A stretch of DNA of 58,813 nucleotides, filler included, from Barthelona sp. PAP020 (taxonomy: Eukaryota), in NCBI GenBank assembly GCA_040182905.1. It is 2 parts of 2 records of this genome, joined end to end, with 100 filler letters (N's around TTAATTAATTAA, not from the genome) between each part and the next. Parts side by side here need not be neighbours in the genome. Positions count along the whole stretch, not along the records: positions 1 to 29,387 come from JARQWU010000119.1; 1 more part is not named here. One strand, written 5' to 3'. The notes below the pieces were generated by a model, which saw only the letters and a list, made by a program, of their open reading frames with translations, was not told the origin of the DNA and ran no database searches. The position numbers were made by a program, and so were the translations under genes. The stretch's first letter is position 1; the number at the start of each line of letters is the position of its first letter. Shown piece by piece: positions 42 to 58,813 of this stretch.

Positions 42-3000
42 GTTTATAGACTTTGTTTCTGAGAGTTTGGGATTTTATTGGGGTGATCGAACTTGTCTTG
101 AGCGTAATTGATGTCGAAGGGTAGCCTTCTTTTCCAAAATTTTCTCCTTCGATTCAATTATGGTCGAGTTAGCATATTTCAGCGCCATCGCATCTGATGC
201 CCAACCGCCTGCATCTTTTAGTAATTCCATATCCTTCCCCTCCTCCCATAGTTCTTTTGCTCTCCCTCTCCTTAATGAATGAGGGGTTATGGTATCTGGG
301 AAACTCCGTTCTCTCGTCCAGTTATGCATTAGTTTCTCAGTTTGCTTCATGATTTCTTTCTTTTCATAGAAAGTGCCGAAGAAAGTCTTTGATTGATTTG
401 CTCCCGTTCTTTGGTAAAATTGACCCCCTCTTGTGTGGAAATGGCGCAGTTCTTCTTCCATAAGAACGCTTCTCTTCCATCTTCCTACTTTGGATGAAAG
501 TATGTTTATGACAATGTGATCTCTCTCTTTTGTCAGAATATTACTGTTACTTCTCAATAAATCGTCCTTCCTGGAACACGTGAAGAAAAGGGCCAATATG
601 TTGTCAATTACATCTGTTGATGTGCTTTCTGTGAGATCTCTTCTGCTCTCGATATAACTTATCAAATCCAGCAGTTGATCCCTATTGATGCCTATCGTGT
701 CTTTAATGTTATGGTCTTCATGACCTCTATTTCTCTTCACATACCGAATGGTGGCATCTCTTGTGTTTTCAAAAGATGCGCTCTGTTTCCACCCAAGTGC
801 TTCCCAAAAGAAAGTTACTGCACTGTACAGATACTGCAGTCGTTGTAGTCCTTTCTTGTATCTACCGTTGGACGCTCTTTCATCCCCCGCCTCTTTAATG
901 AATGAATGTAAGACCATTTCTGCTTTTTCATTTGGCGTGGACGGGATCTGGTCTTCTCTTTTTGCGTAGAAGTTTATAAAGTCCGTGAATACTGCATGAT
1001 ACCCTTTCCAGGTTTGATCAGCGATTGAGCCCTTCTTTATGTCCCATAGGGTAGCGTTAGCTGGAGAATACACATCCACTACTTGCTGCTCTTCTCTGTT
1101 TCTTTTTGGTGATAACCTACAAGCTAGCTTTTGACCCGAAATTATGAAGTCTGACCTCTTCCCTTGGATTGTGTGATATCTCCACGGGAGCCATGCTCTT
1201 GTTGGTACACCTCTTACCTTTACTTCTGATTTAAATTTCATAGCCCTTAACATTAGATCTAATATCATGTTTTCGGCAGTTTCCTTATATAGCAGGACCT
1301 GACCTATCCTCTCAATTTCAGCGAAGAATAGCATGCTTTCATATCCAACTGCACCATAATCTCCTTCTTCTTCACCAATTGGGTTTATCTCTTCTGGTAG
1401 AATATCCTTTTCAGTGTCGCTTTGCATATGCTTTTGAAACATATCAGTTGTTACTGTTGTAGGGAAATTCCCTGATTTTGATTTTAGTTTCTCTTGTCTC
1501 AGAACTCTTCTTAGTTGTCTACTTTTCCCTTGTAAACTTTTCCCTGTTCGATTCTTTAGCCTTGGACACATTCTTACCATGCTAAAAGTCTCTAACGTAT
1601 AATCCGGAATATCAAAAGCAGTAGGGCATAATGTTAGGTCCGAGAATAAACCTCCACGTGGCAGTGCATAATGCTTACCACGGGATAACATGTCTGCGGC
1701 CTTGTTCTTTGCCGACGGAATCCACATCGGAATGACTTTACAATTTAATTTGTTTATTCTTTTCCAAATTCTATCTGCCGTTGTGCGCATGCCCTGATTT
1801 TTATGCTTGGCTTTCCTGAATGCACTTAATGCTGACTGATTATCAATCAGCCAGATCCAGCAACCATTGAGTGCGAGATCTTCGTTTATGTTTAAGGCGT
1901 CTTCTAGTGCCTGTAGCTCTAGGAGTGCAATATTGCTTGAGCTACTTACTTTTCTTGACTGCATTCTTGTCGTATCTTCAGTTTTTATTGCGATCCCTTT
2001 CTTTAACGGAGAAGCATCTGTTGCCACTATAGCTGTGATTACTCTTGGAGAGAGATCTCCTTTTATTTTCTCTTTTAAAAGAATACTTATTGATTCCTCC
2101 AGTGATATCGGGAGTTCGATATTAAGATGGCCATATTTTGCACAGAATATTTCCATCGAGTCTATTTTTAGCAGTTTCATTTTATGTTTTATCAAATTTG
2201 CCACCTGTAATGAATTCTCTCGATATCTTTGGGAGACTATTGCTGCTGCCTGTAGCTTTCCTTGCAAACTCATGAGTTCGGAGATTTTCATTTCATTCTT
2301 CACACTTTCTAACATTTTTTCCCTTTTCTTTTCTGGTAACCTAATACTACGCTCCTTTAGGTCCAGATCGAAGCCCAGATATTCTATACTTTGACTAGGA
2401 AATTGGATCTTCTCCTCTTTAACTTTAAAACCAACGAAATTTAATATTTCTAGACATCTTTTCAAAGCTTTTTCTGCATCAGCTTTTGTCTCTCCACCGA
2501 TTAGCACGTCATCTACGTATTGTAAAACAAACACACCCTCTGATCTTAGTGTTTCTGTTACTATTTGTAGCACCATGGTGAACATTTGAGCAGCGATGGC
2601 TGAACCAAAAGGTAGTCTTTTGGCTCCGTAGAATTTATTGCCAACCTCTACTGTTGTGAGGTTTATCCATTCTTTGTCCAATGGGATATGTGTATATCCC
2701 GACTGGATGTCTATCACTGCTGCGAATTCCGGGATCAGCGGGAAATATCTTGTGGTATTCAGCTCTGTTGGCCACAACAGAGATTGTGCATTTAACGGTC
2801 TACAGTCTAGTATTGGTCTTATTGTTCCATCCTTCTTTGGTACTGCACCTAATGCTGCCTTTAATGTACCTGGACCTTTTACTTCCTGCAATACTCCTTC
2901 CTGTATCCATTGGTTTAAAACATCTTTTTCTTTATCTTTTGCCCAGTTCTTAACCTCCACCGTGATGTTGGTCTCTGGATCATGCATCGCTGGTGCGCCT

Positions 3001-4124
3001 GTTATTATCTTTTCCAGTAGTTGAGTTTCTTCTTTTGTATATTTCAAGTGTTTAGCGAGTTGTGCAAAATTTTCCCATTTCCATCCCGGGCTTCCTTTTA
3101 ATTGTGCAGCCTGATGTTCTTTTGAGATTTCTTGGTGTCTTGGTAATACAGGGGCTTTTATAAGTTTGTCGTTAATATTGCTCAAGTTTTCTCTTTCTTT
3201 TCTTCTTTTCTTTTCTCTTCTGTGTGGTAACTGACTTTTGAGTCTCTTTTCTTGTGTGAAAGGTTTATCTGTTATTTCTTTCTCTCCTGAAAAATAAACC
3301 TCATTACCCTTTTTATTATTATAACTTCTTTCTTTATCACTTCTCTGGAAGTAAAAACGGTCAGGAGTATTTAAAGATACCTTATTAAAACTGTCCATAT
3401 CTTGTATTAATGAATCGAGTTTTTTCGTGTGCGATTTCTCTTCGAACATTCGGATCCATGCCTTATGCATCGCTCTTTCTATATCTGTTACTTCTGAGTT
3501 ATCGTTCGTATTACTAAGTATTTCAATAAATGCTTTAGTCACATAGGCCATCTTCTGTGCTTTGGCCCAATCGTTTTCTTTGAATTGGTACCTTTGCACC
3601 AGGTTGTTCAATCTTTCCATGGGATTCTCTCCTTCCACCATTGCTTTTTCAGACCAGCGTGAGGCTCTTTTAGGGTCTTGTATCATCAATGCGATGTTTC
3701 CCGTTACCTGCCTGCATGTCTCACTCGCAGTATTCTCAATGACTTCGTCGATATTCATTATGTCAGCTGTTCTTTTTCTCTCTTTCTTTTTCTTTTCTTT
3801 CTTTTCTTGTTCTTTTCTTTCTTGGCTTTGTGAAAATTTTATCGCTTCTAATATCTGTTGGAAGCGGTTTTCCATCGAGTTCTCTAGATTTTCAAATGCT
3901 TCTTTCGTCACAAACCTTTCCTCGTTCTTAGTTTCTTGGGGCATTCTAGATAAAATACGTAATCTTAGAATGTGGGCTTGCTGTATAGAGCAGAAAATAA
4001 AACTTATGTAGATCTATTTCACTTTACCGCCAAAACGATTGTTACTAATCACTTCCAATATTGGAAACTTTGTCTACGTATGTGATTATCTCTCTCTGTT
4101 ACGATAATCAGGGCGTCTATAAAC
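42..4124 (-). mobile_element. Tyrosine-recombinase (DIRS-class) retrotransposon, apparently intact, single ORF
   Basis: Contains the RT-RNase H-YR ORF 75-3944. Bounded by the inverted repeat GTTTATAGAC (42-51) / GTCTATAAAC (4115-4124). Visibly more GC-rich than the flanks. The boundaries are inferred from the IR only. Confidence 0.8.
75..3944 (-). CDS. Gag-like / reverse transcriptase / RNase H / degenerate MT-like linker / tyrosine recombinase polyprotein (1289 aa)
   Basis: RT motifs VPKKDG..RPILDCRPLN, IDIQSGYTHI, LPFG and YVDD (2508-2519). DIRS-type RNase H motifs ATDAS, LELQA, IDNQ and NKAADMLSR. YR catalytic R (TCSR), K (SSKV), HSLRRG (264-281), GGW and Y (LKYAN). Confidence 0.93.
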   Translation of the reverse strand: MPQETKNEERFVTKEAFENLENSMENRFQQILEAIKFSQSQERKEQEKKEKKKKERKRTADIMNIDEVIENTASETCRQVTGNIALMIQDPKRASRWSEKAMVEGENPMERLNNLVQRYQFKENDWAKAQKMAYVTKAFIEILSNTNDNSEVTDIERAMHKAWIRMFEEKSHTKKLDSLIQDMDSFNKVSLNTPDRFYFQRSDKERSYNNKKGNEVYFSGEKEITDKPFTQEKRLKSQLPHRREKKRRKERENLSNINDKLIKAPVLPRHQEISKEHQAAQLKGSPGWKWENFAQLAKHLKYTKEETQLLEKIITGAPAMHDPETNITVEVKNWAKDKEKDVLNQWIQEGVLQEVKGPGTLKAALGAVPKKDGTIRPILDCRPLNAQSLLWPTELNTTRYFPLIPEFAAVIDIQSGYTHIPLDKEWINLTTVEVGNKFYGAKRLPFGSAIAAQMFTMVLQIVTETLRSEGVFVLQYVDDVLIGGETKADAEKALKRCLEILNFVGFKVKEEKIQFPSQSIEYLGFDLDLKERSIRLPEKKREKMLESVKNEMKISELMSLQGKLQAAAIVSQRYRENSLQVANLIKHKMKLLKIDSMEIFCAKYGHLNIELPISLEESISILLKEKIKGDLSPRVITAIVATDASPLKKGIAIKTEDTTRMQSRKVSSSSNIALLELQALEDALNINEDLALNGCWIWLIDNQSALSAFRKAKHKNQGMRTTADRIWKRINKLNCKVIPMWIPSAKNKAADMLSRGKHYALPRGGLFSDLTLCPTAFDIPDYTLETFSMVRMCPRLKNRTGKSLQGKSRQLRRVLRQEKLKSKSGNFPTTVTTDMFQKHMQSDTEKDILPEEINPIGEEEGDYGAVGYESMLFFAEIERIGQVLLYKETAENMILDLMLRAMKFKSEVKVRGVPTRAWLPWRYHTIQGKRSDFIISGQKLACRLSPKRNREEQQVVDVYSPANATLWDIKKGSIADQTWKGYHAVFTDFINFYAKREDQIPSTPNEKAEMVLHSFIKEAGDERASNGRYKKGLQRLQYLYSAVTFFWEALGWKQSASFENTRDATIRYVKRNRGHEDHNIKDTIGINRDQLLDLISYIESRRDLTESTSTDVIDNILALFFTCSRKDDLLRSNSNILTKERDHIVINILSSKVGRWKRSVLMEEELRHFHTRGGQFYQRTGANQSKTFFGTFYEKKEIMKQTEKLMHNWTRERSFPDTITPHSLRRGRAKELWEEGKDMELLKDAGGWASDAMALKYANSTIIESKEKILEKKATLRHQLRSRQVRSPQ

Positions 4125-4776: not shown

Positions 4777-5409
4777 CTAAGCTAAAACATCAAAATTTAT
4801 ACTTTCAAACCTGTCAACATACAAATCACTCACTTCTCTCAGTTCATAATTGTTATATCCAACGAATTGTATACCATTGAATATAGCAGCTTGATGATCA
4901 GTATTTGAATCACCCACCATTACACAAGTATCTTTTATAAATTGATTTTCTTCAATGATTCTTTGAATATGAAATTTTTTATGAATAGGACTACCATCAA
5001 TACTAGTAAAATAATCTACCAATGAATGTTGATCACACAAAAACTTTAATTCAGTATCTTCAGTTCCACTTACCAGATGATGAGAATGAGTGAGTTGATT
5101 TGCTTTCAGAAAATTGATTGAATCTAAAATCTGAAATTTAGGGTTTATTAAAGCTTCTTTGGCAATTTTAGAAAATTCATCGAAATAAGGTTGTAACTCT
5201 TCTTCAGTTTTTGTTTCTTTTCTAATATTATTAAAAAAATATTTAATAATATCGAATCTAGGAATGGCACCATTACTTTCATGAAATTTAATTAGTTCAT
5301 TCACTTGTGTTTCATCGTAATTTCTCAAAACATGTCGAAAAATATTTGTTTTAAATTTTGCTGAATCTAAAAATACTCCATCAAAATCCCAAAATATGTG
5401 TTCGATCAT
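4777..5409 (-). CDS. HAD-superfamily phosphatase (phosphoglycolate phosphatase-like), bacterial type
   Basis: Motif I WDFDGVFLDS directly after the Met at 5409, motif II VSG, motif III GSP..K, motif IV VGDS..D..AA. Confidence 0.88.
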   Translation of the reverse strand: MIEHIFWDFDGVFLDSAKFKTNIFRHVLRNYDETQVNELIKFHESNGAIPRFDIIKYFFNNIRKETKTEEELQPYFDEFSKIAKEALINPKFQILDSINFLKANQLTHSHHLVSGTEDTELKFLCDQHSLVDYFTSIDGSPIHKKFHIQRIIEENQFIKDTCVMVGDSNTDHQAAIFNGIQFVGYNNYELREVSDLYVDRFESINFDVLA

Positions 5410-5724
5410 TAAAATAATCTCACTTGTTCTTTTTGTCGCAAAAAAAAAATTGTGAGAATATTTCATTTTCTTTCATCAAAAAACATTTGTTAACCAAATA
5501 AAACTTCGTTCTTTTCAAATCTATGGTTTTTTTTTTCTAAATTCTAAAATGGCTTGCTTTTTGAAATAAAAGAGAAATTTTTCAATTGTTTCAACAACAT
5601 CCTTTGCATTTTATGATTAATAAAGACATATTTTTTGTATTTGTTGTTTCTTGTGTATGAAATAAAAGAAACAAAAACAGTGTACAAATATTTTTCTTTT
5701 TATATTCAAAGAAATAATTCAAGA

Positions 5725-6536: not shown

Positions 6537-7720
6537 TCAATCATCGTCATCATCATCATTATCATAATCACTTTTATTAGTCTGTTTGTCTGTAAATAAG
6601 CACACATTACCATAGTTAGCTGTGTTGATAGGAACCAAATCCAAACATGTATCAACAATCATATTGTACTCCATTTTATTTATATTAACACCTACAGAAA
6701 CTAATTATCTGATAATTTGAGGGTTCATGTTCAGCATAATTAGATTTAATGACACCTCAACACCCCTTTTTGATAGTTCAATTAGTTCAAACAGATGTGA
6801 ATAACAATGAGACACAATCGAAAAAACCTTGATAGTATTGTCTTTACATCGTCCACAGACCAGCTGTTTCTTTTCAGGTGATATAGCAAAAGAAAAATCA
6901 TAGCCATTGTAAGAACAAGGAACCTTTTGAAACTCCTGGAAACAATTCACATTGTATGAGGTAATATAACCATCACTAGACATATAAAATAAAGGATGCA
7001 ATTTTACCTATTTAATAATTATCCCATGCTTCACCACACAAATCAAATGCATGGATAAGTGTTCCGTCATCCATGTTCCGCAGTTTGATGGTTTTTAACA
7101 AATCACCAAAGGCAATTATTCCTTTGGAAACTTGGAAATCAATGGCAGAAACGGCATGATCCAGATTGAATGTATGAACAATAGAGAGATTTTCAGCGTT
7201 AATCAACGTAGTACAATCAAAACTGCCAAATAACAGATATCTACCATCTCATGAAAGTTTTACTCTGAAAATAGGTTTGCAATGAACTCTTTTCTCCAAA
7301 AAAACATCACCGCTATTTATATCACATTTTCGAAGTAATCCAGCATCACCATTAGAATACACATAATTGGAGCAATTGGAAAAACAAATACCATAAACAA
7401 CAACATCATTGCTCAACCTGCGCAATATGGAGAAATCTGGAAGATTGTACACAATGACAGTTGCATCATTCGAACATGTGGCCAACTTTTGTTCAATTAG
7501 TATATATATATCTTGTATGTCTTTCGGAGACTCAGTCTTTTAGTTGCTACATCAAATACATGGACATGCGGAAAACTTCAAGCCACAGAATATTTACTAT
7601 CAGGAGAGTATTGAATATAATACACATCATTAGAACCAAATTCTTTAATTTCACTCACACTGTCTTCATCAATCTTCAGAAGAAACATATTAAGAATAGT
7701 TTTCTTCTTCAATTCATCAC
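6537..7720 (-). pseudogene. WD40-repeat protein pseudogene carrying the C-terminal domain shared with the ankyrin genes
   Basis: WD40 motifs YSPDSKY, ATCSNDATVIVYN, LS*DGRYLLFGSFD and ISPEKKQLVCG..DNTIKVF. Broken by in-frame stops (7249, 6705 and one near 7580) and frameshifts. Reading through 6705 continues LVSVGV...DDDDDD to a stop at 6537. Confidence 0.85.
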
Positions 7721-7814
7721 TTGAATCAAAAGACAAGTAAAAACTATCAACAAAAAAAAATCAAACAAAATTTTTCAAACAAAAGAATAGTGATTCAATC
7801 TGTGAAATGAAATT

Positions 7815-8230
7815 TGCTATTTATCAGTTAAATAATTTGTTAAAAGTTTTAAAGTATTAAAGGGTTGATTTCAAAAACTATTGAAACGTTAAATCATCTA
7901 TGCTGTTTCAGATATCTTAAATGCCTTTTCTTGTGGGAAAATTCTTCAATGTCTAAAATTTTCAAATAATTGACCTTTATTTGACTTTATTACCAATAAA
8001 AATATGAATAAGTGAAAGATAAACCTCAATTTTTGCTCTTTGGATTATTATAAAAAGGACTGTTTGGTCAAACAGTCTAGCTTAAATATCCTCCAATTTA
8101 TTTGGTACTGAATTGAAATTGTCACACAATAAGCTTCATTGTTGCTTCATGTTGCCTCACTGTGATATAAGTAGCCTAATATTGCTTGAATTCTGGAATA
8201 TTCAGAAAGAACTTACGACAAATGCAAAAT
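7815..8230 (+). pseudogene. Decayed leucine-rich-repeat gene remnant
   Basis: Fragments IYQLNNL, GLISKTIETLNHL..FRYLKCLFLWEN (from 7862) and ELKLSHNKL...ISSLILLEFWNI match the LxxLxLxxN pattern; many stops and frameshifts. Confidence 0.5.
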
Positions 8231-8354
8231 ATAGACTTTTGCAAATGATTTTTCCAAATTTTTATTATTGTTTGAAATTAACTTTTTTTTCTCCCTCATT
8301 TTTGTCTGATTCACTTTTGTTGAAAATGTGCTGAAATGAATTTTCAAAAATTAC

Positions 8355-8525
8355 CTTTTGACTGAAATTTGCTTGAATGAATATTCTGAGATTTGGATGT
8401 TACCAAAAGCACAGGGGGTTGGGGGAGGGGTAGAGAGGAAATTTTGACAATTAAGAATGAAAATTTCTTCGAAATTTTCTTTTGCTTATTTTTTGCATTT
8501 AACAAAATTAAAATTTCAAAGTTTT
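8355..8525 (-). repeat. Dispersed repeat, segment A (partial copy with an internal micro-inversion)
   Basis: The reverse complement of 8405-8525 aligns with about 55838-55955. Positions 8356-8390 match 14246-14279 in direct orientation. Confidence 0.7.
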
Positions 8526-8899
8526 GAATCTCTCTAAAGCGATTCATAACTCATCACCTTTGTTATTAAATAGTGGTGAAAATATTTTACAGCTCTTTTT
8601 AAGAACTGTAATACAATACCATAAAGAAACTTCTCTTCCTTCTCAAAAAATTTATCTAATATGATGTTTTACTGTCTTTTTGATGAAGAATCAGAATATT
8701 TTAGTAAACAAAAAAGGAACCATTTTGAAGTTAATGGTTTCCCAAAAAGAACATTCCAAGCCCTCTTTAAGTAACTCAGTTAATGACTAGCGTTTAACAA
8801 AGGTTATATCAAAGACAAACAAACTACAATTTATGCACAACGAAAAATAATTTGCAAAACATCCATTGAATAAACATGTAACCATACAAACAGACCTTT

Positions 8900-11800
8900 T
8901 TAATCATCAGCATCACTTTCATCATCTTCCATCTCTTTATCAATATACTCACGCATATTGCCACCATTTCTTTCATTGATGTCGATCAAATCCCAACACA
9001 ATTCGATTGTCATGTCAAAATCTCTTTGATTCATATAGACTCCAGCACTCACAAATTCCCGAATGATAACACTGTTCACATTCATTGCAACAAGTGTTGA
9101 CAATAAATACCCTTGATTCTTTACCAGTTCAATTAACTCAGATTTGGACAAAGGCTCAAATTTCAAATCAACAGGCTTGCCACTCTCCAATTGATGCTTC
9201 AAATTAGGACAGCTCAAAAAGCAGTATAAATTGTATGTTTGCCGTTCCTCAACACATGCATACAATCTATTGAAAAACAACAACATTCCTACACCATCTA
9301 TGTTTGGTTTGGCACAATCTAGAAGCATTTTGGCAATATCAAGATGACCTGCTTGACAACTTATGTTAAATGGAGAATTCCCATTATTGCAACACAAATT
9401 AACATCAGAACCATGATTTAGGAGCATTTTAGCAACATCAAAAAGTCCATTTTGACAACAAATTAACAATGGAGAAGCACCATTATTCTTACACAAATTA
9501 ACATCAGATCCATGGTCCAAAAGCATTTTAGCAACATCAACATGGCCACTACAACAACTGATATACAATGGAGAAGTACCATTATTTCTACATAAATTAA
9601 TATCAGCTCCGTAATTTAAGAGCATTTTGGCAAGATCAAGATGCCCTTTGTGACAACTACAAAACAATGGAGAAGTACCATCTTTCTTGCAAAAATTAAC
9701 ATCTGCTCCATAATCCAAGAGAATTTTAATAATATCAAGATGTCCATTTTGACAACAAATGAACAATATAGAAACACCAAAATAATCACAGAAATTAACA
9801 TCAGATCCATTATCCAAGAGCATTTTAGCAACATCAAGATGGCCATTATAACAACTCATATACAATGGAGAATCAACAATTTTTCTACATAAATTAATAT
9901 CAGCTCCATGATCCAAGAGCATTTCGGCAACATCAAGATGACCTTTTTTACAACTGCTGTGCAATGGAGAAGTGCCAATCTTATCACACAAATTAACATC
10001 TGCCCCATGATCCAAGAGCATTTTGGCAACATCAAGATGACCATTATAACAACTGATGTTCAATGGAGAATATCCATCATTTTCACATAAATCAATATCA
10101 GCTCCATAATCCAATAGCATTCTTGCAACATCAAGATGACCTTCTTGACAACTGATGTACAATGGAGAAGCACCATCATTCATACACAAAATAATATCAG
10201 CTCCATTATTCAAGAGCATTTTGGCAACATCAAGATGACCTTGATGACAACTAATAAACAATGGAGAAGCACCATCTTTCGTGCACAAATTAACATCAGC
10301 GCCATGATCCAAAACCATTCTGGCAATATCAAGATGGCCATTTTGACAACTAATGTACAATGGAGAAGCACCATCATTCATACACAAATTAACATCTGCT
10401 CCACAATCCAAGAGCATTTTGGCAACATCAAGATGATCATTTTCACAACTGATGTACAATGGAGAAAATCCACCATGATTACACAAATTAACATCTGCTC
10501 CACAATCCAAGAGCATTTTGGCAACATCAAGATGACCATTTTGACAACTAATGTGCAATGGAGAAGAACCAACATACATACACAAATTAACGTCAGCGCC
10601 ATGATCTAAAAGCATTTTGGCAACATCAACATGACCATTTTGACAACTGATGTACAATGGAGAAAATCCACCGTTCCTGCATAAATTAATATCAGCTCCA
10701 TAATCCAACAGCATTTCAGCAACATCAAAGTGGCCTTTGTGACAACTAATATACAATGAAGAAGTACCATCAGTCGTACATAAATTAACATCAGATCCAT
10801 TATTCAAGAGCATTTTAGCAACACAAAGGTGATCATTTTCACAAGTGATATACAATGGAGAAGCACCGTTATTCATACACAACTTAACATTAGCTTTATG
10901 ATTCACTAGCATTTTGGCAACATCAAGATGACCATTTTGACAACTAATATATAACGGAGAAGCGCCATTATTCTTACACAAATTAACATCAGCTCCATGA
11001 TCTAAGAGCACTTTAACAACATCAAGATGACCTTTTTGACAACTAATATACAATGGAGAAGCACCATTATTATTGCATAAACTAACATCAGCCCCAAAAT
11101 CCAACAGAAAATCAACAACATTGACATGCCCATCAAAACAAGCTCCCCAAAGCGATGTTCTTCCTTCCTTGCCCTGCTTGTTTACATCAACACCAGCTTT
11201 GACACACTGCTTTACAACCTCAAGATTACCATCACAAGCTGCATAATAGATCTTCTTTGGTCTTCCATTATCTTCAAATCCATCTACATCAAACCCATCT
11301 GGAACAACAACTTGATCCATGTTATGCTTGACATATGGCTCAACTTCCTCTTCAATACCTGTCTCTTCAATAACAGTATCGACAAGCATCTTCAGATAAC
11401 CAGCAATTAACTTGAAAGACGGACGCTTGGAAGGGTTTTCATCAAAACACAGCTTTACAATACCATGGCCAGGAATCGAATCTATCATCTCGTCAGAATA
11501 TGGCAATTTCCCATTAATCAAATATCTGAATGGTTCATCATCCACAGCATCACAAGGACAAACTTCTGTCATCACATAAAGCATCATCACTGCAAACGCC
11601 CACACATCAACAGCCCTTGGATCTATCTTGTCTTCATTTTCCCCAACAAGGATCTCAGGAGATAGATACGAAACTGCACTGTTCATGTCAACCATCAATA
11701 AACTGTTGGCATCTTTCACTGTCCAAAAATCGCTCAAAGCAGGAATGAACTTTCCATTAAAATTCCTCAAAAGAACGTTAGTGGGCTTCAAATTGCCATG

Positions 11801-12379
11801 AGTTAAACCGCATGCGTGACAATAATCCAATGCGGAAGCAACCTGCATGAGTATTGTGAGCTTTTCCATCAAAGAAAGGTTGGGTATTTCTTGCTCAAGA
11901 AAAGAGGTGCAGTATTCCATAACTATTCCAGTTTTACCGTCGATCTCAGTCACACCATGAATTTGACGAAGGAAAGGATGATTTAGCTTCATGGGAACGT
12001 ATTGCTTGAGGAAATCGTGTTTTTTTGGCTTTTTGTGGAATAATTTGATAGCAACAATGATTCCCTCTCTTTCAGCAGTAATTAAGCGTCCAAATACCCC
12101 TGACACAAAATTGGACTTAAGCATTTTAAGGGTAGATCCAACAATTTCAGTTGGTTTTAGGGAATCCATGAGCTCTGTAAATGATTGGAGATTGTTTATA
12201 CGATTCTTGCCCTTTGATTGCCAGTTTGCCATAAAACTGGTGTCAACCTGTTTTTCATTTGGTTCTACTATCTTTTTAGTGCCTAAAATATCAGAGTCAA
12301 AAACCATTAGGTGTAAAAAAAAAAGAAAATAAAGGCTAAAAATGTTTAATAATCTTTTTTTACAGTAGTATTCATTCAT
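8900..12379 (-). CDS. Pseudokinase + ~20 ankyrin repeats + unrecognised C-terminal domain (1159 aa; start uncertain)
   Basis: Kinase fold with VAIK, HGNLKPTN (catalytic Asp replaced), DFW, SPE, DVWAF and KRPSF. 33-aa repeats GxSPLYISCxxGHLDVAKMLLDxGADVNLC. Confidence 0.92.
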   Translation of the reverse strand: MNEYYCKKRLLNIFSLYFLFFLHLMVFDSDILGTKKIVEPNEKQVDTSFMANWQSKGKNRINNLQSFTELMDSLKPTEIVGSTLKMLKSNFVSGVFGRLITAEREGIIVAIKLFHKKPKKHDFLKQYVPMKLNHPFLRQIHGVTEIDGKTGIVMEYCTSFLEQEIPNLSLMEKLTILMQVASALDYCHACGLTHGNLKPTNVLLRNFNGKFIPALSDFWTVKDANSLLMVDMNSAVSYLSPEILVGENEDKIDPRAVDVWAFAVMMLYVMTEVCPCDAVDDEPFRYLINGKLPYSDEMIDSIPGHGIVKLCFDENPSKRPSFKLIAGYLKMLVDTVIEETGIEEEVEPYVKHNMDQVVVPDGFDVDGFEDNGRPKKIYYAACDGNLEVVKQCVKAGVDVNKQGKEGRTSLWGACFDGHVNVVDFLLDFGADVSLCNNNGASPLYISCQKGHLDVVKVLLDHGADVNLCKNNGASPLYISCQNGHLDVAKMLVNHKANVKLCMNNGASPLYITCENDHLCVAKMLLNNGSDVNLCTTDGTSSLYISCHKGHFDVAEMLLDYGADINLCRNGGFSPLYISCQNGHVDVAKMLLDHGADVNLCMYVGSSPLHISCQNGHLDVAKMLLDCGADVNLCNHGGFSPLYISCENDHLDVAKMLLDCGADVNLCMNDGASPLYISCQNGHLDIARMVLDHGADVNLCTKDGASPLFISCHQGHLDVAKMLLNNGADIILCMNDGASPLYISCQEGHLDVARMLLDYGADIDLCENDGYSPLNISCYNGHLDVAKMLLDHGADVNLCDKIGTSPLHSSCKKGHLDVAEMLLDHGADINLCRKIVDSPLYMSCYNGHLDVAKMLLDNGSDVNFCDYFGVSILFICCQNGHLDIIKILLDYGADVNFCKKDGTSPLFCSCHKGHLDLAKMLLNYGADINLCRNNGTSPLYISCCSGHVDVAKMLLDHGSDVNLCKNNGASPLLICCQNGLFDVAKMLLNHGSDVNLCCNNGNSPFNISCQAGHLDIAKMLLDCAKPNIDGVGMLLFFNRLYACVEERQTYNLYCFLSCPNLKHQLESGKPVDLKFEPLSKSELIELVKNQGYLLSTLVAMNVNSVIIREFVSAGVYMNQRDFDMTIELCWDLIDINERNGGNMREYIDKEMEDDESDADD
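9300..11260 (-). repeat. Tandem 99-bp ankyrin-coding array, ~20 units with high internal nucleotide identity
   Basis: Recurrent plus-strand blocks caatggagaagcacc, acatcaagatgacc and aaattaacatc at 99-bp period. Confidence 0.95.
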
Positions 12380-12894: not shown

Positions 12895-13406
12895 ATTTTG
12901 CAAGAAAATTTTGGAAAAATTTGCTTTAGCTTGTTTCTTTGCATTTGTGATACAAAAATAAAATGTAAAGATTTTACAAACATTTTCATAAAGAAGACAT
13001 GTATAACCCACATATAGGACAGTAGTTAAGATACAAACATTACTCGGAGAGTTCAACAAAAGTCGAAGAAACTTCAGATAAGACCTCAAACATAGAGATG
13101 ATATAAACAAGAACAATTCTTTACTTCAAGAATCCTGAATTTAATCCTTTAGGTCGCATTCTTTTTCTTTTTAAGCATCAAACATCCCAAAATCTTCGTC
13201 ATCGAAAAACTTCTAACTATACTAAACCCAACGTAATGGGTTAACACAAAAATAAAAGTCTTTTAAATTTTTGAAATAATTGGATTTAAATTTCCATTTT
13301 TGAAAAATAAACAGTTCTACAGATTATTCAACCTAAAAACCTTTGACCAAATAAACACTATTTTTTTATTCACTCACACGCATAATAATTCTTGGCTTGG
13401 CAATAA
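12895..13406 (-). repeat. Dispersed repeat, segment A, inverted and split by a ~300-bp unrelated insert
   Basis: The reverse complement of 13285-13406 matches the start of A (ccaagccaagaa...tgagtgaataaaaaa.atagtgtttatttg; from 14033 and 55715). The reverse complement of 12895-12985 matches the continuation at about 55825-55905. Confidence 0.7.
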
Positions 13407-13457
13407 TCATGCATCATAAACATTAATATTGAATTAACCTATTCATTTTTCTACTTG

Positions 13458-13802
13458 TGCGAACCTTTTCCAGAATTTTCCCAAATCAGAGCCTGGGAAT
13501 CTCAGTTGACTGATAAATGATAAACATTCATCTTTATTCTTTTAGGAAGGTTCAGCGTTCCTGAAAGGAACCTTTCTTTTTTGATACCTCTCTTTCATAG
13601 GCTGTCATAGGAGAGCTACACCCTATGCTGGGTGTGCAATATTGCATTACTATTTGCTCAAAAGGGCCTAACGCCCCGATCTCTTTAAAATATATCTGAA
13701 TTGGGCAAGTTTTCATGCATTCACCATGGCAGGTCAAAAATTTGGAGGTAGGCTAAAGAAAAGTTCCATACCTTCAGGGAAAAAGGAAGAATTGGAAAAT
13801 TC
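13458..13802 (-). repeat. Dispersed repeat, segment B (inverted copy of 14345-14682)
   Basis: Shared blocks aggttcctttcaggaacgctg, aaatttttgacct, aaagaataaagat and aaaaggttcgca. Confidence 0.9.
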
Positions 13803-14032: not shown

Positions 14033-14682
14033 TTATTTCCAAGCCAAGAAGCACTGTGTGTATGAGTGAATAAAAAAGAATAGTGTTTATTTGTTAAAGG
14101 CTTTCGAGAACCGATTGATCTGTTGAAAAACTTTAGAATTTTGCTTTTGCAAAAATCCAAAAAAATTGGAATGAAGAATTTCTCCGAAATTCTCCCACTT
14201 GATCGTTCCAATTACATTTCAGTCCCTCAATTCTCCTCCTGGGATTTTGACTGAAATTTGCTAGAATGAGTTTTCTGAGTTAACTTTCTTTGTAAATAAA
14301 TATAATTGTTTCACAACTGGACCAAATTTTTGCAAAAGCAAAAAAATTTCCGATTCTTCCATTTTTTCATCAAGATACGGAAGTTTTCCTCAACCTACCC
14401 CAAATTTTTGACCTACCATTATGAATGCGCGAAAACTTGCACAATTAAGATTAATTTTAGCATGTCAGAGCTTAAAGCTCTTTTGAACAAATGGCAATGC
14501 AGCATTTCACTTGCCCCATAGGGCGTAGCTGCTACGAAAGCCTATGAAAGAGTAATTCTCAAAAAAGAGAGGTTCCTTTCAGGAACGCTGGACCCCCGAA
14601 AAGAATAAAGATTAAGGTTTATAATTAATTAATCAACAGAAATTCCAGTCTCTGATTGGGGAAGTTCTGTAAAAGGTTCGCA
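14033..14682 (+). repeat. Dispersed repeat A+B (~650 bp) followed by an A-rich tract; probably a non-autonomous mobile element
   Basis: A (14033-14330) aligns with 55715-56033. B (14345-14682) aligns with the reverse complement of 13458-13802. A-tract at 14683-14698. No coding signature. Confidence 0.85.
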
Positions 14683-14733
14683 AAAGAAAAAAAAAAAACT
14701 GTGAAAATATTCACGTTAACATTTGTGAGACAA

Positions 14734-29387: not shown

Positions 29388-29487
29388 NNNNNNNNNNNNN
29401 NNNNNNNNNNNNNNNNNNNNNNNNNNNNNNNTTAATTAATTAANNNNNNNNNNNNNNNNNNNNNNNNNNNNNNNNNNNNNNNNNNNN
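29388..29487. other. Artificial contig/scaffold linker (44 N + TTAATTAATTAA + 44 N)
   Basis: Exactly 100 bp; the central 12-mer (29432-29443) has stop codons in all six frames. Confidence 0.97.
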
Positions 29488-54885: not shown

Positions 54886-54994
54886 TTGGAATTGTAGAGT
54901 TAAATAGGTACCATACGACAACTCACTAACACAGAATTGCAGAATTTTATAAATTTTGGACTTGAGTTTTTCTTTTTGAGAAAAATTTGACTTT

Positions 54995-55088
54995 CTCGAC
55001 AACTGATGAACAATGGAGATACATCATAATAATCACATAAACTAATAGCAGCGTTATAATCCAAGAGCATTTTGCATTCATCAAGTCT
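54995..55088 (-). pseudogene. Single-repeat fragment of the ankyrin family
   Basis: LDECKMLLDYNAAISLCDYYDVSPLFISC, with the same nucleotide blocks (atccaagagcattttg, caatggaga, acaactgat) as the arrays. Confidence 0.8.
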
Positions 55089-55714
55089 TCTTCTTTCTTT
55101 CTTTTTTGAAGACAACTTCTTCATTGCTTTTATCTTGTAATATTGGATAATTGGAGACAAAATTGCAAATATTACAAATAAGTGGGTATTTTGGAGAAGC
55201 ACATCTTCAATCTCCTTCACAATGAGATGTGTCTCCAAAATTGGTGTATGTGCAACCCTCAATTGAATAAACAAAAGCAAAAGCATCTACAATTAATATT
55301 TTTTGTTCCAGTTGATTTGGACACTAATAACAAGAAATAATAAAAGCCTCTTGAAATTCGATTTGACCGTGAAACAAATGTGTAAAGATGATAAAAACTG
55401 AGAAAACTTATTTTACATATCTCAGTCAAAGGCTAGACTTCAATCTTGATAATCAACAGTGAATTGGCCAGATTCAAAATGACTGTACTTATTTATTGGA
55501 GGAAAACTCAGAGAACTCATTGTAAATTTCAAAAGAAACCCCCTATGGACGTGGAATTGAAGAATCAAAATCAATATTGGGTATCATGTATGACATTTGG
55601 AAATTTCCTCTCTGTTTATTATTTTTGCAAGAGCAATATTTAAAAGTTCCACCTTCCATTTTGGAGAAATTTCAAGTTTCAACAGATTAATCGCGCTTTG
55701 AAAGCCTTTAATCT

Positions 55715-56033
55715 TATTTTCAAGCAAGAAATATTGTGCCTATGAGTGAAAAAGAAAGAATAGTGTTTGTTTGGTAAAAGCTTCCAAGGCCCTAATGATC
55801 TGTTGAAACTTTTAATTTTTCAAAAGTGAATGTTAAAAACTTTAAAATTTTGCTTTTGCCAGATACAAAAAAACAAGGATGGGTAAATTTCTCAGAAATT
55901 TTCACACTGGCTCGTCAAAATTACATTTCACTCCCTGGACACCCCCTAGATTTTGATTTAAATTTGTTTGAAAAACTCTTTTGAGTTAACTTTCACTGTG
56001 AATAATTGTAGTTATTTCACAACTAGACCAATT
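55715..56033 (+). repeat. Dispersed repeat, segment A
   Basis: Colinear with 14033-14330 (tatgagtgaa, aagaatagtgttt, tgatctgttgaaa, attacatttca, gagttaactttc, tttcacaact.gacca). Confidence 0.88.
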
Positions 56034-56401
56034 TATTAATTTATTTGTAGCCCAGTATGCGTCAACTTCCGCATTTAATGGTAAAATGAAAACCTCATGC
56101 AACTCTCTTTTAGATTAACGAAAAACATGAAACTGCTAATTTTTTCTTTACAAACAAATTACGGCAACATGGAGTTTTTTGTTGTTTAGACAAATAATCA
56201 GAACATGACAGCATGAAATGAAAGAGGAATTTTTGCATGAAACTAATGTTCCCAAAAGAAACATTCCTTATCCTCTTTTCGTTAATCAGAAGGTAACCTT
56301 TCCCAATGATCATATCCAAAAAGAAACTATGAGTCACATAGGAAAAAGATAAATAATAAAACATGTGTTGAATAGAAATAAAACCCCGCAAACAAACCTT
56401 T

Positions 56402-57883
56402 CTAATCATCAGCATCACTCTCATCATCTTCTATCTCTTCATCAATATACTGACGCATATTGCCACCATTTCTTTCATTAATGTCAACCAAATCCCAACA
56501 ATAGTTGATTGACATATCGAAATCTCTTTGATTCATGTAAGTTCCAGCACTTACAAATTCTCGAATGATAACACTGTTTACATTCATTGCAACAAGGGTT
56601 GATAAAAGATAGCCCTCATTCTTCACCAATTCAATTAACTCAGATTTAGAAAAATGTTCAAATTTCAAATCCACATGTTCACCACTCTCCAATTGTTGCT
56701 TCAAATTGGAACAGCTCAAAATGGAGTATCCATTGTTTTTTTTCCATTCCTCGTCACTTGTATACAATCTGTTGAAAAATAATACCATATCTTCACCATA
56801 TACATTTATTTCGCGACAACTAAGAAGCATTTTGGCAATTTCAAGATGACCTTGATGACAACTTATATACAATGAAGACCATCTATCATTTACACAGATA
56901 TTAAGATCAGCTCCATTATCCAAAAGTATTTTAGCAATATTAAGGTGACCATTTTGACAGCTGATATACAATGGAGACGCACCATTCTTTTTGCACAAAT
57001 TAACATCAACATCATTCTCCAAAAGCATCTTGATCACATCAAGATAACCATTCAGACAGCTGATGTACAATGGAGAAGCACCATTTTTCTCACACAAATT
57101 TATATCAGCCCCATGATCTAAAAGCATTTTGACAACATCAAGATGACCATTTTGACAACTAATATACAATGGAGAAGCATCATTATTGTTGGACAAATTT
57201 ACATCAGCTCCATGGTCCAAGACCATTTTAGCAACATCAAGATGACCTGTTTCGCAACTGATATACAATGGAGAAGCACCATTATTGTCGCATAAATTAA
57301 TATCAGCCCCATGATCCAAGAGTATTTTGACAAAATCAAGATGACCATTATAACAACAAACAAACAATGAAGAAAAACCGTTATTAGTGCATAAATTAAC
57401 ATCTGCTCCATGATCCAAGAGCAGTGCGGCAACAGAAAAATGACCATTTTGACAGCTAATATATAATGGAGAAGCATCATTATTGTTGGACAAATTAACA
57501 TCTGCTCCATGATCAATGAGCATTCTGGCAACATCAAGATGACCATTTTGACAACTGACATAGAATGGCGAAAATCCACCAATCATACTCAAATCAACAT
57601 CAGCACCAAAATCCAACAAAACCTCAACAACTTCGATTTGCCCATTTATAGCAGCTCCATACAATGATGTCCTTCCTTCCTTTCCCTGTTTGTTCACATC
57701 CACGCCAGCTTTGATACACTGCTTGACAAGCTCCAGATTTCCATCACATGCAGCCCAATAAATTTTCTTTGGACGGCCATCTTCTTCAAATCCATTCACA
57801 TCAACTGCATCTGGAACAACAACTTGATCCATGTTATGCTTGATGTAAGGATCAAGTTCCTCAACTACACTATTAACAACCAT
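56402..57883 (-). CDS. Ankyrin-repeat protein (~10 repeats) + shared C-terminal domain; kinase-less paralog of 8900-12379
   Basis: The linker KHNMDQVVVPD, the cap repeat and the C-terminus ending EDDESDADD are nearly identical to the paralog. Confidence 0.92.
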   Translation of the reverse strand: MVVNSVVEELDPYIKHNMDQVVVPDAVDVNGFEEDGRPKKIYWAACDGNLELVKQCIKAGVDVNKQGKEGRTSLYGAAINGQIEVVEVLLDFGADVDLSMIGGFSPFYVSCQNGHLDVARMLIDHGADVNLSNNNDASPLYISCQNGHFSVAALLLDHGADVNLCTNNGFSSLFVCCYNGHLDFVKILLDHGADINLCDNNGASPLYISCETGHLDVAKMVLDHGADVNLSNNNDASPLYISCQNGHLDVVKMLLDHGADINLCEKNGASPLYISCLNGYLDVIKMLLENDVDVNLCKKNGASPLYISCQNGHLNIAKILLDNGADLNICVNDRWSSLYISCHQGHLEIAKMLLSCREINVYGEDMVLFFNRLYTSDEEWKKNNGYSILSCSNLKQQLESGEHVDLKFEHFSKSELIELVKNEGYLLSTLVAMNVNSVIIREFVSAGTYMNQRDFDMSINYCWDLVDINERNGGNMRQYIDEEIEDDESDADD

Positions 57884-58363: not shown

Positions 58364-58813
58364 AATTCCCTTTTCAATGAGAGTTTTCAATGTTGTTAGT
58401 GTGACAAACGTTCAATTGAAATAAATAAGAGCAAAAGCATGTATAATTGATATTTTTTTGTTTATTTGGAAAAGGAATGAGCATCTGAAATTTTATTGGA
58501 TGATCAAATGCGAAAATTTCTGTCAAGTTGCAAAACAATTACCTATTTAAAAAATATTAGCCCAAAATACTCATTAAGTAAATTTCAACCAAAATCCGAG
58601 ATGAATCGAAGACAAATAATCGATTTTGTCTGTCAAACAATAGAATTGAAAAAAATCTTCTCAACTGATCATTTGTATTCAAAAAAACAAGAGTTTTAAA
58701 GTTTTATTAGATATTTATGAGGTATGAGTTGTTCAGTGAACAACGAAACGAGTTAGCTTAAGGTTTGGGAAAAACTCATGTGGATTCAGATGCCCAAGTA
58801 ACTTAAAAAATTG

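Follow-up and report, generated by a model that had tools for sequence, protein, structure and literature searches.

The pairing of a constant box with a variable receptor is a known design, and the cullin-type receptor boxes (F-box, SOCS/VHL box, BTB and DCAF) are few and ancient. Fungal NLRs (HNWD proteins, with NACHT or NB-ARC) likewise draw on interchangeable WD40, ankyrin (ANK) and TPR modules and undergo birth and death. SOCS boxes cap WD40, ANK, LRR, SPRY and GTPase proteins (PMC3355856), while ankyrin-PRANC proteins of poxviruses and bacteria (PF09372) comprise an ankyrin array, a non-ankyrin linker and a C-terminal F-box (PMC4353913). In Giardia, 30 ankyrin proteins end in a single RING at the C-terminus (PMC7029713), so that expansions joining ankyrin repeats to a ubiquitylation module occur in a sister lineage, and Carpediemonas has BTB-Kelch adaptors of the Cul3 type (bioRxiv 10.1101/2021.03.14.435266). 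Here we analyse a window of 58,813 nucleotides, the whole stretch of DNA under study, from Barthelona sp. PAP020 (assembly GCA_040182905.1; positions 1 to 29,387 come from JARQWU010000119.1), in which one C-terminal domain is common to a WD40 pseudogene and two ankyrin genes, ANK1 and ANK2. The domain is undescribed and mobile, is predicted by modelling to fold confidently, and occurs in at least 38 divergent barthelonid proteins, by which it is definable as a family.

The C-terminal domain of the WD40 and ankyrin genes

The genes and domain copies concerned are the following:

6537..7736 (-), WD40 pseudogene: N-terminal helix (~7660-7736), single propeller, domain, acidic tail
6585..6788 (-), domain copy 1, 68 aa, in the WD40 pseudogene; family profile E 2.9e-17
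6540..6584 (-), acidic tail of copy 1, by translation
8900..12379 (-), ANK1, intact gene: kinase (aa 93-326), ~20 ankyrin repeats, linker, domain, acidic tail
8936..9139 (-), domain copy 2, C-terminus of ANK1, by gapless alignment and profile
54909..55097 (-), ankyrin relic of 1-2 decayed repeats, without a domain copy
56402..57883 (-), ANK2, intact ORF: ~10 ankyrin repeats, linker, domain, acidic tail
56438..56641 (-), domain copy 3, C-terminus of ANK2, by gapless alignment; the AlphaFold2 query

A preliminary description of this DNA had claimed that the same domain of ~80 aa ends the WD40 pseudogene and both ankyrin proteins. With copy 1 taken as the translation of 6540-6788(-), an X standing in place of TAA 6705-6707, no gap is needed to align it with 8903-9139(-) and 56405-56641(-), and it shares 28/68 identities with the ANK1 copy and 27/68 with the ANK2 copy. 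Across 100,000 shuffles the mean was 4.9 identities and the maximum 17, and BLASTP between the copies returns E 6e-18; the common identity of the three C-termini is thus upheld. Their terminal position and acidic tail were also correctly described, but the conserved core is only ~68-72 aa long, the tail adding 11-15 aa in the window copies. A domain profile passed over all six frames of the window recovers these three copies only. At the end motif of copy 1 the near-invariant W has become L and the first G has become Y.

The WD40 pseudogene was identified through Pfam WD40 (E 1.8e-7) and a THOC3-type propeller (E 2.7e-12). It contains two frameshifts, near 7510 and near 7020, and four premature stops (TGA 7578-7580, TGA 7249-7251, TAG 7008-7010 and TAA 6705-6707), the third being TAG 7008-7010 or TAA 7012-7014 according to the exact position of the frameshift; the natural stop is TGA 6537-6539, and there is no ATG at the expected start. 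Since the premature stops are of mixed types, gene decay is favoured over a variant code. In tblastn the intact relatives P0124, P0126 and P0192 cover 7736-6570 in frames -3, -2 and -3 at 36-53% identity, and identity to P0124 is 46-53% over both the WD40 and domain modules. Given that many intact proteins combining WD40 with the domain are found by profile search, the pseudogene is a dead member of a large family and not as a one-off chimera.

The kinase part of ANK1 lies at ~11402-12103 and its ankyrin repeats at ~9305-11266, and the linker is 55 aa long. Translation probably begins at Met25 (12307), because the alignment with the paralogue P0005 starts at residue 25. The catalytic loop is HGNLKPTN and DFG is replaced by DFW, on which grounds the kinase part is predicted to be a pseudokinase; fusions of Nek kinases to ankyrin repeats, with dead kinases, are found in Giardia. 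ANK2 is a kinase-less duplicate of ANK1, with 77% DNA identity over 1393 bp including the 3' flank. For this single pair, dN/dS is 0.13 in the domain and 0.47 in the linker, and the domain appears to be under purifying selection between the two genes. DNA upstream of the ankyrin relic (the segment to 55304) is 70% like that upstream of ANK2, and 54909-55304 (-) is a third, dead ankyrin copy. Three kinase-ankyrin paralogues in EukProt (P0005, P0010 and P0014) end in ordinary ankyrin repeats without the domain, which argues that genes acquire or shed it whole; P0005, which was confirmed in the same Barthelona set, is 54% identical to ANK1 over 396 aa.

The domain family, its partners and its predicted fold

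A profile built from the three window copies was searched with HMMER against 1.84 billion representative sequences (cut-off E <= 0.001), giving 67 matches, 38 of which carry one full domain at the extreme C-terminus, where it ends 7-30 residues from the end of the protein, after the NGGN turn. These 38 carriers fall in separate 50%-identity clusters, and every one of the 29 whose source was checked belongs to the EukProt EP00792 transcriptome of Barthelona sp. PAP020, a species with a proteome of ~6,300 proteins (PMC11316075, Table 1). Other BaSk proteomes may be missing from the collections searched, and this bears on the taxonomic range. Scans for the DNA pattern returned 59 stretches in viral contigs and 6 in metagenomes, with 0 confirmed carriers in either, and 9 stretches in prokaryote genomes, where two matches of 11-15 aa were judged to be chance. 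Word-indexed searching misses the family: the 3-row alignment, run among longer proteins, left 0/403 candidates scored, and residues 322-402 of P0132 gave 2/8.

WD40 or other propellers are the partner in 31 of the 38 carriers, ankyrin repeats in two, an ARM array in one and long unclassified sequence in three, the remaining carrier being a fragment. Pfam was scanned with 37 carriers (the 59-aa fragment P0133 was left out), and WD40/propeller families matched 29 of them; a family propeller profile added P0128 and P0159, the latter via its longer isoform P0191. P0097 is an ankyrin carrier and P0148 combines a kinase-like part, recognised by a degenerate catalytic-loop motif, with Pfam ankyrin repeats, while P0146 is importin-alpha-like (E 5.5e-8); by eye, P0146 appears to lack the N-terminal IBB extension. 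The long members P0152, P0158 and P0167 (877-961 aa) show at most weak propeller matches; they are beta-rich, and P0152/P0190, P0158 and P0167 have an N-terminal helical motif of 35-55 aa in common (E 1e-7 to 3e-4). P0172 and P0191 have another N-terminal motif in common.

A typical member is ~400 aa long and consists of an N-terminal helix, one propeller, the domain and an acidic tail, all four of which are present in the window pseudogene. Domains on the ARM, kinase-ankyrin and long members share no more than 51% identity with any other copy, which argues against an origin of these odd-partner fusions as transcript chimeras. Partner swapping is real, and extends to three unrelated repeat folds, but with propellers in 31/38 carriers it is lopsided and must be rare. 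With this qualification, the suggestion of a lineage-specific family that pairs a constant domain with interchangeable modules (WD40, ankyrin, kinase-like plus ankyrin, and ARM) has withstood a wider search, which returned far more than a few copies of a chimera; birth and death is evident in the pseudogene, the truncated duplicate and the ankyrin relic 54909-55097, dead copies lying beside live ones. A 70-column tree, in which most forks are unresolved, places the four plain ankyrin carriers as a clade (99/89) among WD40 carriers. The same tree splits off P0148, which suggests a second, independent capture of ankyrin repeats; an AU test (p 0.53) is compatible with one clade and does not reject it, and on this ground a double origin of the ankyrin carriers was set aside.

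In an alignment of 41 rows the residues R, G, D, L, N, G and N are invariant and C, W and G are conserved in at least 90%. The domain follows the pattern IRxLVxxGIxMNxxEFxxIIxxCWDLxDxNxxNGGNMxxF, and thereafter come 7-30 residues that are usually D/E-rich. Among 21 WD40 members mean identity is 44% in the domain and 29% in the propeller region, the domain being the higher of the two in 202/210 pairs. AlphaFold2, given the 41-row alignment and the ANK2 copy as query, predicts five helices (7-13, 20-26, 31-39, 46-65 and 70-84) with pLDDT 86.8 and pTM 0.72; the near-invariant CWDLxDxNxxNGGN would form a helix-turn-helix unique to the domain. A single-sequence prediction for the last 227 aa of ANK2 reached pLDDT 42, and a homodimer prediction, in which the alignment was not used and the fold was uncertain, scored 0.00 and is uninformative.

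Comparison with known folds and families gave no confident match. Foldseek with the domain model reached E 1.8 at best in the PDB, without a clear fold match, and E 1.7 in BFVD, where giant-virus ankyrin rows were weak (TM up to 0.44, E >4). The best structural alignments from VIA (Z 3.9, rmsd 4.3 over 73 residues) were with unrelated ARM/HEAT solenoids and lie below the usual background, and a second structure comparison reached Z 2.3. Neither Pfam nor NCBIfam (five domain queries) returned a match, PHROGs gave only families of unknown function at E 0.04-0.1, ESM Atlas yielded nothing usable, and the domain profile found 0 matches at E <=10 among PDB sequences; when the PDB was searched with the alignment of whole proteins, WD40 matches overwhelmed the result, which is uninformative on the domain. 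The domain is also undescribed in the literature searched, including the main text and six readable supplements of PMC11316075, in which the words 'ankyrin', 'WD40' and 'cullin' are absent. Several candidate relationships were rejected: Pfam EppA_BapA matched one tail only (E 0.004, below the cut-off) and was not repeated in other members; DxNxxNGGN is not an EF-hand, as the model places D61 and N63 inside a helix; and the linker of the ankyrin proteins is neither a homologue of the helix that begins the WD40 members (HHalign 0.5%) nor what is left of a final propeller blade (142-1000 of 1000 shuffles equally good).

A resemblance does exist to the ankyrin repeat. The other 29 of the 67 profile matches are all ankyrin proteins, matched in multiple stretches at profile positions of roughly 13-45. 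Consensus residues 13-45 overlie one 33-residue repeat without gaps, at a score that 0/200 column shuffles reach and with -10.5 for the reversed profile against 1.6 for the true one, and predicted helices 20-26 and 31-39 coincide with the inner and outer ankyrin helices. The likeness per repeat is weak (5-10 bits): HHalign gives 55% over 23 columns against repeats picked by the search and 11% against an unbiased ankyrin set, comparison with the ankyrin repeats of the same proteins gives p 0.01 for the pseudogene copy and 0.44-0.46 for the two ANK copies, ankyrin structures reach Z 2.7 against the domain model, and Pfam ankyrin is negative. Like an ankyrin repeat (PF00023), residues 13-45 keep the 33-residue register, the helix-loop-helix and the G-x-x-x-N turn; unlike one, the domain falls below Pfam detection, lacks the TPLH motif, is present in single copy, runs on as a helix of 20 residues with an invariant NGGN turn after it, and carries its ankyrin-like part between genes within a larger unit. 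On balance we lean slightly towards derivation of the N-terminal half of the domain from an ankyrin repeat. Its description as unrecognised therefore stands as regards any described domain or fold, but has to be lowered for the middle 33 residues, which resemble one divergent ankyrin repeat.

Possible roles of the domain

We propose that the variable N-terminal module (a WD40 propeller or an ankyrin or ARM array, sometimes with a pseudokinase) would pick the target, while the constant five-helix domain would dock every member onto one common partner. That the domain serves as a common docking module for variable receptors is probable, this reading being founded on a conserved and always terminal domain that sits on unrelated repeat folds, comes and goes as a whole, and belongs to a family in which genes arise and decay; the partner may bind on a surface made by the invariant R, G, DL, N and GN. 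The common partner would be the core of a ubiquitin ligase and the family a set of interchangeable substrate receptors, an identification to which we give somewhat less than even credence, the ligase being chosen as the most likely machine by analogy with SOCS-box, F-box/PRANC and ankyrin-RING receptors. Like the SOCS/VHL boxes of ASB, WSB, SPSB and MUF1 proteins (Elongin BC with Cul5 or Cul2), the domain is one short helical C-terminal box placed on WD40, ankyrin and other proteins, but it is ~70 aa long, with five helices and an acidic tail, is partly ankyrin-like and is known only from barthelonids. With the ankyrin-PRANC proteins it has in common the order of ankyrin array, linker and constant C-terminal motif, yet it occurs mostly on WD40 proteins and has no match in viral contigs or BFVD. 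The ankyrin-RING (XB3-like) proteins of Giardia are another metamonad ankyrin expansion with a constant C-terminal module; the barthelonid module is not a RING and is common to WD40 and ARM proteins. Unlike fungal NLRs, the carriers scanned lack an NTPase, and the order of constant and variable parts is reversed.

Several results weigh against the docking and ligase readings. The BC box, (S,T,P)LXXX(C,S,A)XXXPhi as defined in PMC3355856, occurs in 1/41 rows (P0130, outside the core) where 2.1 are expected by shuffling, and the Cul5 box LPPhiP occurs in 0/41. The Cul2-like pattern PhiPXXPhiXXXPhi is found in 7/41 rows, scattered and non-aligned, and never downstream of a core BC box; SOCS-box structures are not among the best 50 of 48,161 chains, which does not exclude them. 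The F-box motif LPxE, searched as LPxE[ILV], is present in 0/41 rows of the domain and in 0/39 of the first 90 residues, and F-box/PRANC families of Pfam do not match the tails at E <=1. A RING-like set of conserved Cys and His residues is absent (Cys in one column at 90%, His/Cys in two at ~35%), U-box and RING have no Pfam match, and the model is all-helical. WDxR, the motif conserved in the propellers of DCAF proteins, the receptors of DDB1-Cul4, is not family-wide, since [WF]DxR occurs in 6/29 WD40 members and WDxR proper in two. Giardia itself is without detectable Skp1 or Cullin1 (PMC7029713). Propellers make up most of the partners, and the ankyrin-like middle of the domain would permit a purely structural role. 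Across the 24 ankyrin repeats of ANK1 and ANK2, pN/pS is 1.43 at six binding-face columns against 0.36 in the framework, a ratio of only ~1.1 when the pooled pS (0.364) is used, from columns picked after viewing the repeats and from pairs that are not independent; the binding face appears to change as fast as neutral sites or slightly faster, which fits variable receptors and is no proof of selection. Because BC-box, Cul5-box and LPxE motifs are absent, the domain is placed outside the SOCS-box and PRANC classes, and by architecture the family resembles these but appears to belong to none of SOCS, PRANC, RING, DCAF or NLR, in keeping with the preliminary remark that it was not recognisable as a SOCS-box, PRANC/F-box or NLR protein (neither an NTPase nor a death-fold partner appeared among the carriers scanned).

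If the ligase reading is followed further, the domain might be a fifth receptor box, built from an ankyrin repeat and a new helix-turn-helix, which would lead to a ligase without F-box/Skp1, BC-box/Elongin C, BTB or DDB1 and would replace the machinery lost in Giardia; we regard this extension as unlikely. Were it true, modular substrate recognition would have been reinvented in a free-living anaerobe with a small genome, beside lineages that lost SCF and APC/C. The invariant motif offers a direct handle for fishing out the docking partner, although the reach of the finding is at present one protist lineage, with function read from architecture alone.

A docking or assembly module might instead serve something other than a ligase: it could self-assemble, as the C-terminal domains of the Utp WD40 proteins do, or attach its carriers to a membrane, to the cytoskeleton, to a chaperone or to a transport factor, and the family would then consist of scaffolds or cargo adaptors. 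The same conservation and terminal position speak for this, as do the absence of ubiquitin-system motifs and the importin-alpha-like P0146, and the Utp proteins of the SSU processome, which comprise WD40 repeats, a helical C-terminal domain and an acidic tail, have the same layout. UTP15_C and related Pfam families do not match the domain at E <=1, however, while UTP15_C is readily found in another gene of the window, and rapid birth and death with pseudogenes would suit receptors better than core scaffolds; we consider the non-ligase machine rather unlikely. It is a little harder to accept that the domain is a structural cap, a degenerate ankyrin repeat that only stabilises or finishes its own protein, has no common partner, and owes its spread to WD40 gene duplication and occasional capture. 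The exclusively ankyrin (29/29) matches outside the family at positions ~13-45, the gapless 33-residue overlay, the placement of helices 20-26 and 31-39 and the HHalign result over 23 columns are what it would predict, but the likeness is weak, spans less than half the domain and leaves out the residues that are best conserved (CWDL, N and NGGN), ankyrin structures match poorly, most carriers have no ankyrin array, and paralogous ankyrin proteins end without the domain.

Innate-immune sensors in the style of fungal NLRs, or with amyloid or death folds, would detect molecules from bacteria or viruses with their repeats, the constant domain passing on or carrying out the signal by oligomerising. 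Swapping of WD40 and ankyrin modules, the fusion to a pseudokinase, binding-face positions that are relaxed or diversifying, pseudogenes and a bacterivorous host (PMC11316075) are compatible with such a role. Against it, neither NACHT nor NB-ARC was found by Pfam in the 37 carriers scanned or in the window genes that bear the three copies, and death-fold, TIR, HeLo, F-box, SAM and MLLE structures are not among the matches listed, which does not exclude them. The effector domains of NLRs are N-terminal to the NTPase, the barthelonid constant domain being C-terminal, and the sensor repeats of fungal HNWD proteins are highly homogenised, whereas the barthelonid propellers are divergent single copies with 29% mean identity; a sensory role is accordingly quite improbable. 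Least credible of all is an assembly error or a single chimeric pseudogene. The outside carriers that were checked do come from one Trinity transcriptome, in which chimeric contigs are possible, but WD40 and ankyrin proteins with the domain both occur in the genomic DNA of the window, the pseudogene resembles intact relatives over both modules, and the divergence of the domains on ARM, kinase-ankyrin and long members shows that they were not pasted from a known member.

Genomic setting of the locus

The window is AT-rich eukaryotic DNA (GC 0.19-0.40) with short introns of the GT-AG type, for example at the start of ARPC3, and its housekeeping genes include ARPC3, PA28, UTP15, RRS1 and glucosidase II. 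Two N runs of 44 each lie within 29388-29487. Other elements near the domain-bearing genes are:

75-3944 (-), intact retroelement ORF, 1289 aa; reverse transcriptase E 9e-24 and tyrosine recombinase E 5e-7
4777-5466 (-), intronless HAD-family hydrolase adjoining the locus; HAD_2 E 2e-14
13446-13801 / 14344-14694, inverted repeat of 358 bp, 79% identity, upstream of ANK1
13336-13406 / 14033-14104, second inverted pair, 73 bp
14033-14331, 55714-56037, 8356-8528 and 58509-58600, dispersed non-coding repeat, copies 70-91% alike

The ORF at 75-3944, with GC 0.38-0.40 against ~0.29 in the surrounding DNA, encodes both reverse transcriptase and tyrosine recombinase and is what we take to be a DIRS/Ngaro-type retroelement. 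By eye the HAD hydrolase is of bacterial type, making lateral transfer possible. The inverted repeats upstream of ANK1 are possibly a decayed DNA transposon. The dispersed repeat flanks both ankyrin genes, one copy lying between ANK1 and the WD40 pseudogene, and may have aided duplication of the ankyrin and WD40 genes.

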